Source of the DNA: a virus
Lineage: Duplodnaviria; Heunggongvirae; Uroviricota; Caudoviricetes
DNA: 6,393 bases
Virus record (IMG/VR): IMGVR_UViG_2576861133_000006
Direction: 5' to 3' (one strand)
This document shows, piece by piece, positions 374 through 6,294 of the stretch. Under the pieces are notes generated by a model. It saw only the letters and a program-made list of their open reading frames with translations, was not told the origin of the DNA and ran no database searches. The first letter of the stretch is position 1, and the number at the start of each line of letters is the position of its first letter. The position numbers and the translations under genes are program-made.

Positions 374-646
374 ATGGACAATAACACCATTTCTCTACAG
401 GAGTTGCTCGACAGCATTTCCAGGCTTCGGGAAGACGTGAATACCCTTACCGTCGCCTTCTCATATCTGGCATTCTCAATTCCAAGGGAACAGATGCAAT
501 CAACGCTGGCATCAATCCAGTTTGAATCATGCAATCCCAAATGGTCTCAGGAACAACAAGACTCTTTCAGGCGGCTTGCTGTATTACTGGATGAAAAATA
601 TGCTGGTAAAATTACCATTTCGGCGGACTCTTCAGAGAACCCGTAA
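374..646 (+). CDS. Hypothetical protein, 90 aa, antisense to the lysis cassette
   Basis: ORF with ATG start and strong SD (GAGGA, 6-nt spacer). Product MDNNTISLQELLDSISRLREDVNTLTVAFSYLAFSIPREQ... has no recognisable motif. The 3' end overlaps the convergent DUF1327 gene by 35 bp (612-646). Chosen over the minus-strand 68-aa ORF 334..540, which starts with TTG and lacks an SD. Confidence 0.4.
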   Translation: MDNNTISLQELLDSISRLREDVNTLTVAFSYLAFSIPREQMQSTLASIQFESCNPKWSQEQQDSFRRLAVLLDEKYAGKITISADSSENP

Positions 647-1208
647 TTATTCCCGGTAGTTTTCCTCTGTAGGTTATCAACACATCCTGCGCCTCTAAAA
701 TTACGGGGCGCTTTTCCGGCGACTGCTCATCCCCTTCACATAACCCGGCAGCAACATCCAGGAAGACCTGTCTGATGCTCCTTCTGGCTGCTGCCTCATA
801 AAACTCCAGCGCGGCACCTTCAACACGGTCCAGCGAGATGTCCAGGTCAAAAATTTCACCGTCAAAGCGTTTTTTGTCCCGTAACGCTAAAGTTACCGTA
901 ACTTTATTCTCAAAATTGCGGATCCCTTTCACAATCAACTGCGCCTCTAAAATTACGGGGCGCTTTTCCGGCGACTGCTCATCCCCTTCACATAACCCGG
1001 CAGCAACATCCAGGAAGACCTGTCTGATGCTCCTTCTGGCTGCTGCCTCATAAAACTCCAGCGCGGCACCTTCAACACGGTCCAGCGAGATGTCCAGGTC
1101 AAAAATTTCACCGTCAAAGCGTTTTTTGTCCCGTAACGCTAAAGTTACCGTAACTTTATTCTCAAAATTGCGGATCCCTTTCACAATCAGTTCATAGTTT
1201 TGAGTCAT
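612..1208 (-). CDS. DUF1327/YdfR-like lysis-cassette protein carrying an in-frame tandem duplication (198 aa; about 114 aa without the duplication)
   Basis: ATG at 1208..1206 preceded by GGAGA SD, 4 nt after the pinholin stop. The N-terminus MTQNYELIVKGIRNFENKVTVT... resembles, from memory, E. coli Qin prophage YdfR (DUF1327), which likewise lies between holin and lysozyme. Residues 7-90 are repeated as 91-174. Confidence 0.65.
   Translation of the reverse strand: MTQNYELIVKGIRNFENKVTVTLALRDKKRFDGEIFDLDISLDRVEGAALEFYEAAARRSIRQVFLDVAAGLCEGDEQSPEKRPVILEAQLIVKGIRNFENKVTVTLALRDKKRFDGEIFDLDISLDRVEGAALEFYEAAARRSIRQVFLDVAAGLCEGDEQSPEKRPVILEAQDVLITYRGKLPGIITGSLKSPPKW
687..1190. repeat. Near-perfect tandem direct duplication, 2 x 252 bp (687-938 and 939-1190), in frame within the DUF1327 gene
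   Basis: Direct comparison of the two copies: 251 of 252 positions identical. The only difference is 938 (a) versus 1190 (g), a synonymous TTG/CTG Leu change. 252 is a multiple of 3, so the frame is preserved. Confidence 0.95.
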
Positions 1209-1212
1209 TGAA

Positions 1213-1428
1213 TTACTCTCCCCGTGCAGCCTTACGACGGTCCTCTCTGATTTTGAAATACAGGTTAGTCAGATATGTCAGCAGCCCAAACAGCAGACTC
1301 CCCAGCACGCCTATTGCCGCCCACTGAGACGGGGAAACCCTGTCCAGCAACTGCAGGAACCAGTAGCCCGTTCCCACCGCTGACGTGGTGTATGACACAC
1401 CTGTTGTGATTTTTTCCATCTGGTACAT
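1213..1428 (-). CDS. Class II holin, S21-type pinholin, with dual-start motif (71-aa form from 1428, 68-aa form from 1419)
   Basis: Translation [71 protein letters not shown]: two predicted TM segments and a charged C-terminus, closely resembling phage 21 S21 as I recall it. Two in-frame ATGs 3 codons apart (1428 and 1419). GGGAGA SD 6 nt upstream of 1428. The ORF-track start at 1506 is rejected because the upstream extension covers the terminator hairpin. Confidence 0.8.
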
Positions 1429-1460
1429 ACCCCGTCTCCCGTTATCCGGAAGCTGACAAC

Positions 1461-1493
1461 AATAAAAAAAGCCACCAGTTAAGTACTGATGGC
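1461..1493 (-). terminator. Rho-independent terminator between the esterase gene and the pinholin gene
   Basis: Minus-strand RNA: 8-bp stem GCCAUCAG/CUGGUGGC (one G.U pair), 7-nt loop UACUUAA, then UUUUUUUAUU. Plus-strand coordinates: stem 1471-1478 and 1486-1493, A-tract 1461-1470. Confidence 0.55.
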
Positions 1494-1578
1494 TCTGATA
1501 ACTCATGCAGGCATCTCAGACGACCCACTGACACTACCGGTGAGTTTAACGATACCTTCCATTTGACTGGCTCACTTT

Positions 1579-3450
1579 TTATGATGATGCCGGTGCATTT
1601 ATCTCCAGCACCAGACTTTCTATCTCAACGCCATACGTTGCATTTTTGGTAATATCCGTCAGCGTCAGCGCATTCAGCCCCAGTGTCAGACTGTCTTTTA
1701 TGACCTGGAATGCCGGGCCAGCCACTCCATTCAGTTTCGGAGTAACCGTGGCACTGCCGGCGGTGAACACCAGCTCCAGCGTCTGCCAGTCGTTACTGTA
1801 ATTCCCGAACTCGCCCAACTTTGTGTTTCCTGCTTTCCTGTGATGCATCAGATTCAGTTTGCCGTCTGTGGTCTGGGTGAAGAACGACATCAGGAACGGG
1901 TTACCAGTCCCGGTCATCGCCACGACGTCAGGTAACGCTACATCGGTACACAGATAAATTCCCAGACCGAACTGGTTGTTGGTCAGTGCGCCTGACAGTC
2001 GAAACTTACAGCTCAGTCTGCCACCCCGTGTCAGCAGGGAGACTGCGTCATCCACCGGATGCATCAGGGACCAAGTTTTATTGCTCTGCTTGGTAACCTT
2101 AAACACACCATCTTCCAGCGCAACACTGCCGCCGGTGATGGTCCAGCCCTGCGCAGCAGCCTCTCCGGCTGTCGGCAGCAGGGAGACTGTACGAACGGAT
2201 GTGTCACCATCAGACGGCCCCGATGGAGTGTCGCCGCCGGGCGAGGGTTTGATTTCCGGTGCCTTACCACTAATGAAGGCTAAGGTGCGACCGGCTACGT
2301 TCAGAATAGCAGTTGCCATACGATCGGGAATAATGCCACGACGCGCCCATGAGCTGAAATGCGTCGGGCGATTTGATGATACCCAGTTTTTGTTCGTTCG
2401 GGATGCCGAACCGTAATAACCAGACCCGGCAATATCAGGATCTTCTGACGGGTTGTTTGTCGGTGTATTAACTCCGCTACCATCGGTCATAAAGGGAACA
2501 AAATAAATCTGCTGGGATTCTTTACCTTTATATGCACCATATACCACTTCATATTGCGTACCGTGTTCTTGTTTCCACGCGTATGTCGTGTCGCCACAAA
2601 TCCAGGGGACTGATGCCGGACTTCCACCGTGACACTGCGCCGCCAGCCCGGCAAGGTCAGCACGGAACTGCTGTACCATTGCAAGAAATGCTGCTGGCTG
2701 CTGGGCGTAACTGGCATTCGTCATATCGAATTCCCCCTGCATCCAGCATATCGCCAGCAAAACGTTTTTCGGGTTTTTCTGCAATGCTGCCTTCGTGCGG
2801 AAAAGCAGATCCTGATATAACGGCTTACCCACTCCCCAGCGAGCCGAATCCTGACTGGCCCCCGTGGACTCGCTGAATGTCCCCTCCGTGCCCTGGGTGA
2901 ATGCCGAACCACCACGACAGCATGGTACCAGCAGGATCCCCGCATTATTAGGGATATACGGAAGCAGTTTTTTGGCAATATGTAAGCCCTGTCCGACACA
3001 GCCGTACTGCCCTTTGCTCAGGTCAGCCCGGGGATGGTTAATCGTACTCATATCCTGAACATCATGCAGACAATGGTCAGCAGGAATGATGTCGTTAAAT
3101 ACGCATACTTCACCACCGGGAGTCACTGTGTTACGACGGGCCAGTTGCTTAATGCGCGGATGGGGCGCATCGTATGAATCCGGAAGCGGAAGCCCTTCAC
3201 CGTAAGCCATGGCATTGGATTGCCCGGCCAGTACGATGACGTAGTACCACTCCGGCTCAGTTGCACCACTGACGACCACATCACCTTCTGCTGCAATCGC
3301 CTGCATCAGGGTATAAGGGGTTATGGCCACCGGACTACCAAACGGCTGCCAGCCCTCTTTCAGTTTATGTGTCAGCTTTTCCGCAAGATCTGACGGCGAC
3401 GCCGCCCTGACAACATCATAGTGTTTAAATGCCATGGTTCTTTCCACCAT
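1579..3450 (-). CDS. nanS: Prophage-type sialate O-acetylesterase (NanS-p-like): N-terminal DUF1737-like region, SASA esterase core, C-terminal beta-rich domain
   Basis: 623-aa ORF. N-terminus MAFKHYDVVRAASPSDLAEKLTHKLKEGWQPFGSPVAITPYTLMQ is DUF1737-like. It is followed by VIVLAGQSNAMAYG, a GDSL/SGNH-type GQSN catalytic-serine block typical of sialic-acid-specific acetylesterases. The position upstream of the lysis genes matches NanS-p of EHEC prophages. The start may instead be the ATG at 3435 (MAFKHY...), which has a slightly better upstream purine-rich tract. Confidence 0.75.
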   Translation of the reverse strand: MVERTMAFKHYDVVRAASPSDLAEKLTHKLKEGWQPFGSPVAITPYTLMQAIAAEGDVVVSGATEPEWYYVIVLAGQSNAMAYGEGLPLPDSYDAPHPRIKQLARRNTVTPGGEVCVFNDIIPADHCLHDVQDMSTINHPRADLSKGQYGCVGQGLHIAKKLLPYIPNNAGILLVPCCRGGSAFTQGTEGTFSESTGASQDSARWGVGKPLYQDLLFRTKAALQKNPKNVLLAICWMQGEFDMTNASYAQQPAAFLAMVQQFRADLAGLAAQCHGGSPASVPWICGDTTYAWKQEHGTQYEVVYGAYKGKESQQIYFVPFMTDGSGVNTPTNNPSEDPDIAGSGYYGSASRTNKNWVSSNRPTHFSSWARRGIIPDRMATAILNVAGRTLAFISGKAPEIKPSPGGDTPSGPSDGDTSVRTVSLLPTAGEAAAQGWTITGGSVALEDGVFKVTKQSNKTWSLMHPVDDAVSLLTRGGRLSCKFRLSGALTNNQFGLGIYLCTDVALPDVVAMTGTGNPFLMSFFTQTTDGKLNLMHHRKAGNTKLGEFGNYSNDWQTLELVFTAGSATVTPKLNGVAGPAFQVIKDSLTLGLNALTLTDITKNATYGVEIESLVLEINAPASS

Positions 3451-3628
3451 CTGAAAAATGATTCTTTAAAATACCTGACATGTAATACAGAAAAAACACA
3501 AAACCATACCTTAAATAAAAACCTCATCATCAAGCAGATATGCATGGATAAACTACAAGACGAGATATAAACCACCCTGCATTTAAATAAACAATAAACA
3601 ACATCAGAAAAATAATTCTGCTCTATGG

Positions 3629-3655
3629 TTTACAATCAAAAATATCATTTATACT
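3629..3655 (+). promoter_or_regulatory. Candidate sigma70-type promoter for the 111-aa ORF
   Basis: TTTACA (3629-3634), 15-bp spacer, TATACT (3650-3655), in a very AT-rich tract about 40 nt upstream of the ATG at 3696, which has an AAGGA SD. The spacer is shorter than optimal, so this is weak. Confidence 0.25.
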
Positions 3656-3695
3656 TTTCAGAACATCACCAGCAAGGCATAAACAAGGAAACTAA

Positions 3696-4031
3696 ATGAA
3701 GTGGATTGTGATTGATACAGTTATCCAGCCATCATGCGGAATATCTTTTTCAGTCATATGGAGTAAAATAAAATTAATAATCTGGTATCAATCGGATGCT
3801 TTCTTACCTCCTGAAAGTATATTTACACTGACTCACACAGGCATCATGCTCAATAACAAAGTGCTACCTGTAACCATTTACAACGTAGTACCATTCAATA
3901 AAACATTCTGGAATTTAATCAAAAACAGCCAGGAATGCCCTACAAATACAGATAACGTATTGAATGAATGCTTTAATAACCGTTGCACTCTGCAAATATG
4001 TCCTTATGGACTAAAACAACAAAGTCCATAA
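3696..4031 (+). CDS. Hypothetical protein, 111 aa, AT-rich cargo gene opposite to late transcription
   Basis: ATG with AAGGA SD 6 nt upstream. Very AT-rich coding sequence with six ATA codons. Product [32 protein letters not shown]... has four Cys in the last 31 residues and no recognisable motif. Confidence 0.35.
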
Positions 4032-4049
4032 GGAGTTTACTCACATCTG

Positions 4050-4087
4050 ACAAAATCAATATAAACAGCCCCTCCGGAGAGGGGCTG
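4050..4087 (-). terminator. GC-rich hairpin followed by a U-rich tract on the minus strand (putative intrinsic terminator)
   Basis: 9-bp perfect stem CAGCCCCTC(4066-4074)/GAGGGGCTG(4079-4087) with loop CGGA. The minus-strand transcript continues UUUAUAUUGAUUUUGU; on the plus strand the hairpin is followed by GAGAGUGGCG, with no U-tract. It lies 35 nt past the stop of the 111-aa ORF. Confidence 0.4.
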
Positions 4088-4478
4088 GAGAGTGGCGCTA
4101 TGTGCCATTGCATGGTGCCGGGTGCCTCCCGGTGAATTCAGTACCAGCACCTGAATCCGCGATTATCCCATATACCTACTCGCTGATTGCCCCTCCGCAC
4201 AGGGGGATTCACCATGCCAGTTTCTTTTAACAAACTCCCCGCAAACCAGACAACAATCAACCGCCTGAATTGTGAAGTATTTAAAAATTTCTCCCGCTAA
4301 CTGATACCCGGCTAACAGTCTGGCGTTTTCTTTTTCAGCAACGGGAAAGCAACAACCACCACACCCGCCACCAGCACACCGTCAGCCAGCACTGACATTA
4401 TCCGGCTGCAGCAATGCCATTCACAAAAACAGTAAGCAATCACTTTTTACCGTAACCGGTGATAATCCAGATATGTAT

Positions 4479-4805
4479 CTACCCCAGATGAGTAATCCGA
4501 AGTTCATCCATACCACAGGTCCTGGCTATTCTGTTGTACTCCTGAACAAGAGTAAATAATTCTGAATTAGCCACCATGAACTCATCGCAAACCCTCTGTA
4601 TAGCATCACTATTCAGAATAATAACGTCTCTTCCCGAAAGACGATCAGGAGTACAGAACAAAACTGTCAAACGGCTGAAGGCCTTTGCTCGTGCTGCATT
4701 GACTATATCAATACGCTGCCTAAGGATGAAACACCCCGACGCCTCATCAATATTCACTCTACCCACACCATATGAATGATAAATATTTAATGCTGAAAAA
4801 ACCAT
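4479..4805 (-). CDS. Hypothetical protein, 108 aa from ATG at 4805 (118 aa if the GTG at 4835 is used)
   Basis: Minus-strand ORF in the cargo slot. Product MVFSALNIYHSYGVGRVNIDEASGCFILRQRIDIVNAARAKAFSRLTVLFCTPDRLSGRDVIILNSDAIQRVCDEFMVANSELFTLVQEYNRIARTCGMDELRITHLG. It contains 3 AGA, 3 AGG and 3 ATA codons. No convincing SD before either start and no recognised family. Confidence 0.4.
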   Translation of the reverse strand: MVFSALNIYHSYGVGRVNIDEASGCFILRQRIDIVNAARAKAFSRLTVLFCTPDRLSGRDVIILNSDAIQRVCDEFMVANSELFTLVQEYNRIARTCGMDELRITHLG

Positions 4806-4942
4806 TAGACCGTATAACAAACACTCAATCAACACTTAACAGAACTTTTATTTTTGACAAACATATAATATTTTCAACAATATCCTGAGCCAGGTATATT
4901 TCAGTATAAGGCTCTGCCGGAAGGAATCTGGAAGAATGAATA

Positions 4943-5019
4943 TGGCGCGCTGTACTGGATTCGAACCAGTGACCGATTGCTTAGAAGGCAATTGCTCTGT
5001 CCGGCTGAGCTAACAACGC
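4943..5019 (-). tRNA. tRNA-Arg, anticodon UCU, 77 nt (phage argO/argU-like)
   Basis: Minus-strand sequence GCGTTGTTAGCTCAGCCGGACAGAGCAATTGCCTTCTAAGCAATCGGTCACTGGTTCGAATCCAGTACAGCGCGCCA. Acceptor stem GCGTTGT/ACAGCGC (one G.U), D stem GCTC/GAGC, anticodon stem ATTGC/GCAAT with loop CTTCTAA, T arm ACTGG-TTCGAAT-CCAGT, encoded CCA. Confidence 0.9.
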
Positions 5020-5119: not shown

Positions 5120-5195
5120 TGGTGGCCCTTGCTGGATTTGAACCAGCGACCTGGCGATTATGAGTCGCTCGCTCTCACCACTGAGCTAAAGGGCC
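5120..5195 (-). tRNA. tRNA with CAU anticodon, 76 nt; most likely tRNA-Ile2 (lysidine type, ileX/ileZ-like) rather than tRNA-Met
   Basis: Minus-strand sequence GGCCCTTTAGCTCAGTGGTGAGAGCGAGCGACTCATAATCGCCAGGTCGCTGGTTCAAATCCAGCAAGGGCCACCA. Perfect acceptor stem GGCCCTT/AAGGGCC, anticodon loop CTCATAA, T arm GCTGG-TTCAAAT-CCAGC, encoded CCA. Very close to E. coli ileX as I recall it. Confidence 0.9.
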
Positions 5196-5244: not shown

Positions 5245-6294
5245 TCAAACGATTAAACCCTGAACTTCCCTGACTGTCTGCTCAAAACGTCCGGTCTCCA
5301 GCTCAACGCCAATCGCACGACGCCCGAGCGCCAGTGCCGCTTTTACCGTTGAACCTGAGCCCATAAAAAAATCTGCAACCAGGTCACCCGGACGACTGCT
5401 TGCGCTGATTATCTGCTGCAGCATTTCTGCCGGTTTTTCGCACGGATGTTTCCCGGGATAGAACTGCACCGGTTTATGTGTCCACACATCCGTGTACGGC
5501 ACCTGCGCCGTCACACCAAAATACCGCCGCAGATGCTTATATTCACTCTGCAGCTCCACATACTGCCGGTTCAGTGACGTATACGTATCCACCAGCTGGT
5601 GGTGGGGCTTTTCCAGTTCACCGCGCTGATGTTTCTCTTCTGCCACCCGGGCAAACAGCGACTGTAATTTCAGATAATCGCTTTCGTTCGGTAGCTGCCA
5701 CTGACTGGCACTGAACCAGTGCGACACCATGTTTTTCTTTCCTGTGGCATCTGCAATCTGTTTTGCCGTTATCCCCAGGGCCGCGCGCGCATCACGAAAG
5801 TAAGAAATCAGCGGGGCCATCACATGCTGTTTCAGTGCACTGCCCTTCGCCGCATACCCGGCATCTTTCGGACGATACGGCCCCTGATAATGTTCCGCGA
5901 ACAGAATGCGCTCTGTGGCGGGGAAATACGCCCGCAGGCTTTCCTTGTTGCATCCGTTCCAGCGTCCGGACGGCTTCGCCCAGATAATATGGTTCAGCAC
6001 ACTGAAGCGTTCACGCATCATGATTTCGATATCAGATGCCAGGCGATGACCACAGAACAGGTAAAGACTTCCGGCAGGTTTCAGCACCCGCCAGAACTGC
6101 GCCAGACACTGGTCCAGCCACTTCAGGTAATCATCGTCGCCCTTCCACTGGTTATCCCAGCCCTCAGGCTTCACTTTAAAGTACGGCGGGTCCGTGACTA
6201 TCAGGTCAACAGAATTTTCGGGTAACGACCGGATAAATTCCAGGCAGTCGGCGTTGATTAACTCACAACTGGATATTTTTACAGTATTAGCCAT
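5245..6294 (-). CDS. DNA methyltransferase, beta-class amino-MTase (N6-adenine or N4-cytosine), 349 aa
   Basis: DPPY catalytic motif near the N-terminus (LIVTDPPYF) and FxGxG SAM-binding motif near the C-terminus (DFFMGSGST). The order motif IV then motif I defines the beta class. In-frame stops immediately upstream of the ATG at 6294 fix the start. No restriction endonuclease partner is present in the window. Confidence 0.85.
   Translation of the reverse strand: MANTVKISSCELINADCLEFIRSLPENSVDLIVTDPPYFKVKPEGWDNQWKGDDDYLKWLDQCLAQFWRVLKPAGSLYLFCGHRLASDIEIMMRERFSVLNHIIWAKPSGRWNGCNKESLRAYFPATERILFAEHYQGPYRPKDAGYAAKGSALKQHVMAPLISYFRDARAALGITAKQIADATGKKNMVSHWFSASQWQLPNESDYLKLQSLFARVAEEKHQRGELEKPHHQLVDTYTSLNRQYVELQSEYKHLRRYFGVTAQVPYTDVWTHKPVQFYPGKHPCEKPAEMLQQIISASSRPGDLVADFFMGSGSTVKAALALGRRAIGVELETGRFEQTVREVQGLIV

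Follow-up and report, generated by a model that had tools for sequence, protein, structure and literature searches.

The window, by which we mean the whole 6,393-nt stretch of DNA analysed here, is the late region of a prophage that is lambdoid and resembles Stx phages, with the late genes read on the minus strand. Followed in the order of late transcription, these are an N6/N4 DNA methylase gene (6294..5245), two tRNA genes (5195..5120 and 5019..4943), a 118-aa ORF (4835..4479), a 43-aa DUF3927/TciB-like ORF (4443..4312; DUF3927, E 1e-26), the gene for a NanS-p type sialate esterase with DUF1737, SASA and DUF6645 (nanS-p, 3450..1579), a P21-type holin gene (1506..1213), a DUF1327/YdfR gene (1208..612) and the start only of a lysozyme gene. 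An STnc100-family sRNA is also encoded on the minus strand, between the DUF3927 ORF and nanS-p, and is described below.

The 118-aa ORF gives a full-length match to the phrog_2873 profile (E 1e-69, from residue 11) and has no Pfam or NCBIfam family; PGAP leaves it unannotated in strain 1162C, though the DNA is 499/499 identical over 4444-4942. The 43-aa ORF matches the PHROG 'TciB-like inhibition of cell division or resistance to colicin', and is a further small moron-type gene adjoining the STnc100 sRNA. Inside the DUF1327/YdfR gene there is an exact 251-nt direct repeat (687-937 and 939-1189, period 252 nt), which results in a 198-aa two-domain ORF, while the best matches listed in complete E. 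coli genomes cover only 339 bp, the equivalent of a single copy (114 aa in the locus of strain 1162C). It reflects an in-frame duplication that is rare, or else an artefact of assembly.

Between the sRNA and nanS-p, the plus strand carries an ORF of 111 codons plus stop (3696..4031, ATG to TAA), preceded by a Shine-Dalgarno motif, AAGGA, at 3685-3689, 6 nt before the ATG. A previous sequence-only reading had described this ORF, with its own Shine-Dalgarno motif, as running against all the late genes, and our analysis agrees on coordinates, start and stop codons, length and orientation: the methylase, nanS-p, holin, DUF1327 and lysozyme genes are all on the minus strand. There is another plus-strand ORF in the window, at 374..646 within the lysis cassette, which codes for 90 aa (phrog_2411), shares 35 nt with the 3' end of the DUF1327 gene and is annotated as hypothetical in other genomes.

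The ORF is AT-rich, with a GC content of 0.345, compared with 0.294 for the 245 nt upstream, 0.492 for the whole window and about 0.53 for the flanking nanS-p and methylase genes. The six ATA codons reported in the sequence-only reading were all counted, among 13 Ile codons, and the N-terminal half is aromatic- and Ile-rich as described (7 aromatic residues and 10 Ile within residues 1-60). The four cysteines near the C-terminus are at positions 81, 92, 97 and 102; a fifth, Cys14, had been omitted. One of the two tRNA genes has a CAT anticodon and is called tRNA-Met by ARAGORN and tRNA-Ile by PGAP in the matching locus of strain 1162C, and the other is tRNA-Arg(TCT). A tRNA-Ile with a CAT anticodon would presumably be a lysidine-modified, ileZ-like reader of AUA. 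Since ATA is used at 6 of the 13 Ile codons of the ORF, the prophage may provide a decoder for its own AT-rich gene; AGA and AGG codons are absent from it (zero occurrences).

Identity and conservation of the plus-strand gene

The product scores 162 bits with the NCBIfam model NF007393, 'anti-adapter protein IraM' (cut-off 121, E 4.7e-48), and its residues 1-110 align to positions 1-113 of the 114-position profile. Residues 1-78 also match the IraM chain of PDB 8TWD (8twd_A, E 9e-32), and the product aligns without gaps to K-12 IraM, with 62% amino acid identity and about 70% nucleotide identity. The search for remote homologues proposed in the sequence-only reading, which had recognised no family, thus places the ORF in the IraM/IraL family over its full length. 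The only match in PHROGs is phrog_4407, of unknown function. A Pfam-A hmmscan up to E 10 gave no match for either IraL or K-12 IraM, despite PF11183 being precomputed for all family representatives in the protein database; we treated this mismatch as a difference between libraries, and not as evidence against membership. We take PF11183 to be the PmrD family, to which IraL showed no detectable sequence match in the Pfam scan.

The identity of the gene can be defined further by comparison with uropathogenic E. coli CFT073. The ORF is identical to a gene of the CFT073 potB prophage (WP_000871291.1), in 111/111 amino acids and 336/336 coding bases. This gene, located on the potB island, was named iraL by Hryckowian et al. 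(mBio, 2014), who assigned as iraL any gene whose coding region agrees with that of CFT073 iraL at 95% or more of its nucleotides (PMC4045071), a class into which the window ORF falls at 336/336. The product for which the sequence-only reading recognised no family is therefore 100% identical to an experimentally characterised anti-adaptor. The window and CFT073 also share the −35 and −10 hexamers, the 5' UTR apart from one base at 3692, and the prophage surroundings, with tRNAs, DUF3927, iraL, DUF1737/esterase and holin. They differ in that nanS-p is full length in the window whereas only a DUF1737 fragment is present in CFT073, and in that the window has two tRNA genes and the methylase where CFT073 has three tRNAs and IS200. 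We conclude, with a probability of about 0.95, that the ORF is iraL, a prophage-borne moron encoding an RssB anti-adaptor, with its own sigma-70 promoter and antisense to the late operon; nothing that we found contradicts this identity. The gene is real but not new, its family and mechanism having already been characterised.

The AT-rich DNA, the rare codons, the empty Pfam-A scan and the existence of one frameshifted relative could all be expected of a chance ORF, or of a pseudogene decaying in an AT-rich spacer. This explanation is refuted by the full-length NF007393 match, by the identity to a gene with a demonstrated phenotype in CFT073, and by the pattern of conservation, which together leave it a negligible probability. 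The 16 family representatives compared, with identities as low as 53%, retain the same length and frame, and comparison of iraL with K-12 iraM gives dN 0.25, dS 1.6 and dN/dS 0.16, indicating that the protein sequence, beyond mere transcription, is under selection. The conservation of length and frame with mostly synonymous substitutions, which the sequence-only reading had suggested as a check, is thus observed.

The gene is widespread in E. coli. Of 5426 complete E. coli genomes, 1440, about a quarter, contain at least 80% of the region 3560-4100. Among matches taken at even intervals along the ranking of this set, 25 of 26 full-length ones have an intact anti-adapter gene annotated, the remaining copy being frameshifted. 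A relative is also encoded on 253 prophage contigs of IMG/VR, the best 80 of which are 100% identical in protein and have 8 synonymous polymorphic sites; as these loci were picked by protein identity, their all-synonymous variation is biased, and the iraL/iraM comparison was used instead. At 90% identity, the protein database contains only about 20 clusters, none of them from outside Escherichia, and most are of 106-111 aa. Some iraL copies are decaying or disrupted: an iraL-like copy in E. coli JNEC-KY202, 92% identical, lacks 1 nt at coding position 51 and carries a frameshift annotation, and in the ST131 strain 4224 the 541-nt iraL region is interrupted by an IS1 element, which leaves it in two parts.

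Promoter region and relation to iraM

The sequence-only reading had proposed a TTTACA/TATACT promoter for the ORF and the mapping of 5' ends as a way to verify it. Both hexamers are present, with the −35-like TTTACA at 3629..3634 and the −10 TATACT at 3650..3655, and the mapping is already published for the identical gene of CFT073, in which the 5'-RACE end is ACATCACCAGCAAGGCATAAACAAGGAAACCA, beginning ACATCACCAGCAAGG... (PMC4045071). This string starts at position 3663 of the window, with a single C-to-T difference at 3692, and by homology transcription would start at 3663, 7 nt past the TATACT hexamer. The resulting 5' UTR of 33 nt agrees with the published complementing fragment, which spans '-100 to +33' (PMC4045071). 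The spacer between the two hexamers is short (15 nt), and because the consensus scan requires 16-18 nt this promoter was left unlisted.

Over 3629-3695 the window differs from CFT073 by three substitutions, which leave the hexamers unchanged: A for T at 3635, just 3' of TTTACA, A for G at 3662 (position −1), and T for C at 3692. This promoter haplotype is the commonest, occurring in 48 of the 84 compared loci in which the gene start was located, and the promoter/upstream region was reported to be at least 96% identical to that of CFT073 among all iraL strains (PMC4045071). We infer that the window copy is expressed with this haplotype. The same paper also describes a point variant in the −35 element of the second iraL copy (iraL2) of JJ1886 (PMC4045071).

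Further upstream we identified a candidate PhoP-box-like direct repeat, TGTTTA-TTGTT-TATTTA (3584..3600, minus strand), which has one mismatch and lies 63-79 nt upstream of the transcription start. It is the sole site in the window with one PhoP-box mismatch or fewer, and is conserved in near-identical loci. A comparable site arises in 4-6% of composition-preserving shuffles of 3451-3695, and the region upstream of K-12 iraM, intended as a positive control, has only sites with 2-3 mismatches and no clear PhoP box. Our literature search found no mapped PhoP box for iraM, and Mg2+ and PhoP are not addressed in the IraL paper (PMC4045071). From its sequence, the repeat suggests that iraL may also respond to PhoP, which we regard as a weaker lead than the cysteine tail discussed below.

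This repeat bears on the question of whether the gene is instead an iraM orthologue proper, of the K-12 type, activated by PhoP and induced by Mg2+ starvation, and not of the log-phase IraL type. PGAP and phage records indeed give it the name 'anti-adapter protein IraM', and the product passes the IraM subfamily model NF007393. K-12 IraM (YcgW/ElbA) is a full-length homologue, has the same four C-terminal cysteines and is likewise an RssB anti-adaptor; it is induced by Mg2+ starvation, whereas IraL is active in unstressed log phase and has four additional C-terminal residues (QQSP). However, the identity to K-12 iraM is far from the 100% observed with CFT073 iraL, and the 80 nt that precede the ATG show no relation to the iraM upstream region. 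The genomic contexts also differ, as K-12 iraM adjoins the e14 prophage, next to ycgX, whereas the window gene lies in a lambdoid late region, and the BLAST matches of iraL and iraM were reported not to overlap (PMC4045071). Given also the chance expectation of the PhoP-like site and the result of the K-12 control, we consider an iraM orthologue proper very unlikely, and retain the assignment as iraL. A third protein, RssC of Salmonella, was described as IraL/IraM-like and about 47-49% identical (PMC4045071), and is restricted to Salmonella; our word-seeded protein search retrieved Escherichia sequences only, and not RssC.

The iraL cassette and the convergent STnc100 sRNA

The gene is part of an AT-rich cassette (3451..~4066, GC about 0.33) that extends from the nanS-p start codon to the terminator hairpin of STnc100. 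In Stx phages an unrelated spacer of 260-300 bp occupies the same slot, and homology picks up at the hairpin and at the nanS-p start codon. The same gene order is present in an E. coli chromosome that is identical over 3560-4100, with the Q antiterminator directly past the methylase, and the order Q, methylase, tRNAs, DUF3927, STnc100, iraL (on the opposite strand), nanS-p and holin recurs across other strains. A cassette of this kind, antisense to the late operon, is a typical moron. We also considered whether iraL occupies the slot of the stx genes, and rejected it: in the Shigella phage 75/02 Stx, the STnc100 segment has stx1AB on its Q side, which means that iraL fills the next slot, from STnc100 to the esterase gene.

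The distal limit of the cassette is a GC-rich hairpin with a 9-bp stem (4066..4087), which begins 35 nt past the iraL stop codon. The sequence-only reading had noted this hairpin as lying behind the ORF, and its position is correct, but it is not a terminator dedicated to iraL. It is the terminal stem of an STnc100-family prophage sRNA encoded on the minus strand (4057..4246), which matches Rfam RF02076 with 132.4 bits (gathering score 47), over model positions 1-206 of 206. The terminator scan called the hairpin on the minus strand only, where CAGCCCCTCTCCGGAGGGGCTG is followed by the T-run tail TTTATATTGA. On the plus strand GAGAGTGG comes after the stem, which leaves iraL with no canonical intrinsic terminator. 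The hairpin is the intrinsic terminator of the convergent sRNA, and it is possible that it also acts as a barrier to plus-strand read-through from iraL. The ends of iraL and of the sRNA are about 25 nt apart. According to a 2026 preprint, STnc100 is related to the PasD sRNAs, which are associated with esterase genes. In the locus of strain 1162C, PGAP annotates a partial plus-strand 'hypothetical protein' at a position equivalent to 4102-4227 of the window, over the STnc100 region.

RssB binding and the C-terminal cysteine tail

The function of IraL has been established in CFT073, where the gene emerged from a screen for factors that control the level of sigma-S. Deletion of iraL shortens the sigma-S half-life twofold in log phase (5 min vs 2.5 min), and iraL under its native promoter increases sigma-S in K-12; the protein co-purifies with RssB and, in two-hybrid assays, binds to the RssB N-terminal domain only (PMC4045071). 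For IraM, a crystal structure shows contacts with both RssB domains (PDB 8TWD, Brugger et al. 2023), and its N-terminal domain is a PmrD-like beta-barrel that superposes on PmrD (PDB 4HN7) (PMC10844676).

We compared the 15 IraM residues listed at the RssB interface (clusters I-III and Pro66, PMC10844676) with those of IraL. In total, 11 of the 15 are identical, and the other four are conservative (T13S, L75I, H63N and I64V), so the geometry of the IraL-RssB contact presumably resembles that of IraM. As the two-hybrid result for IraL involves only the RssB N-terminal domain, the cluster I contacts, conserved in 5/5 positions, are probably the core of its action. By the same observation, IraL is unlike IraM, and the interface in the IraM crystal may not transfer fully. 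An AlphaFold model built from a 16-sequence alignment has low confidence (pLDDT 54.8, with the tail 76-111 below 50); it contains seven strands and, after them, a helix at 69-77, which agrees with what has been published for IraM.

From these data the following sequence of events can be proposed. In a lysogen, iraL would be transcribed from its sigma-70 promoter (TTTACA, 15-nt spacer, TATACT, start at 3663), independently of the Q-dependent late operon. The N-terminal ~78 residues of the product are predicted to form a PmrD-like beta-barrel, which would bind the response-regulator-like adaptor RssB. RssB bound to IraL would be unable to deliver sigma-S (RpoS) to ClpXP, and RpoS would consequently be stabilised, chiefly during exponential growth.

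The likeness to PmrD has limits. Like IraM, PmrD binds the receiver domain of a response regulator, but its target is PmrA and not RssB, and it protects the phosphorylated regulator, whereas IraL and IraM block the delivery of a substrate. The resemblance of the IraM fold to a protein that binds a different response regulator would nevertheless be compatible with a PmrD-like connector that serves the phage, either by acting on a regulator other than RssB, or as an antisense unit that damps late read-through into nanS-p and the lysis genes; the position of the gene, antisense within the late unit and converging on the sRNA terminator, would fit the latter. Against such a role, RssB co-purifies with the identical protein, which also changes the stability of sigma-S, the dN/dS of 0.16 denotes selection on the protein sequence, and we found no report of effects on phage late expression. 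We therefore judge it extremely improbable, and favour the RssB anti-adaptor IraL.

The C-terminal tail has the motif C81-P-x9-C92-x4-C97-x4-C102-P, with its cysteines within codons 81-102 (3936-4001 of the window). Its four cysteines are invariant in 16 of the 16 family representatives, as are P82, I101, P103 and G105, whereas Cys14, an RssB contact, varies. This tail was removed to obtain the IraM crystal structure, and was described as less conserved and flexible (PMC10844676). In the papers on IraL and IraM that were examined, we found no discussion of a role for the tail, its cysteines or zinc. Judging from the pattern of invariant residues, the tail could conceivably act as a module that binds metal or senses redox state and in this way determines how stable or how active IraL and IraM are, a tentative idea to which we give rather low odds. 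If it is true, RpoS control would receive a second input through the four-Cys tail.

For the annotation of these prophages, the gain is that the apparent terminator of iraL belongs to a convergent STnc100-family sRNA, and that the gene labelled 'IraM' here by the pipelines is of the IraL type. The cassette that carries it is held in a defined slot between the STnc100 sRNA and nanS-p, which in Stx phages contains unrelated spacer DNA. IraL itself is a switch gained by horizontal transfer, through which RpoS is raised in growing cells, and it shows enrichment in uropathogenic E. coli and in Shigella.
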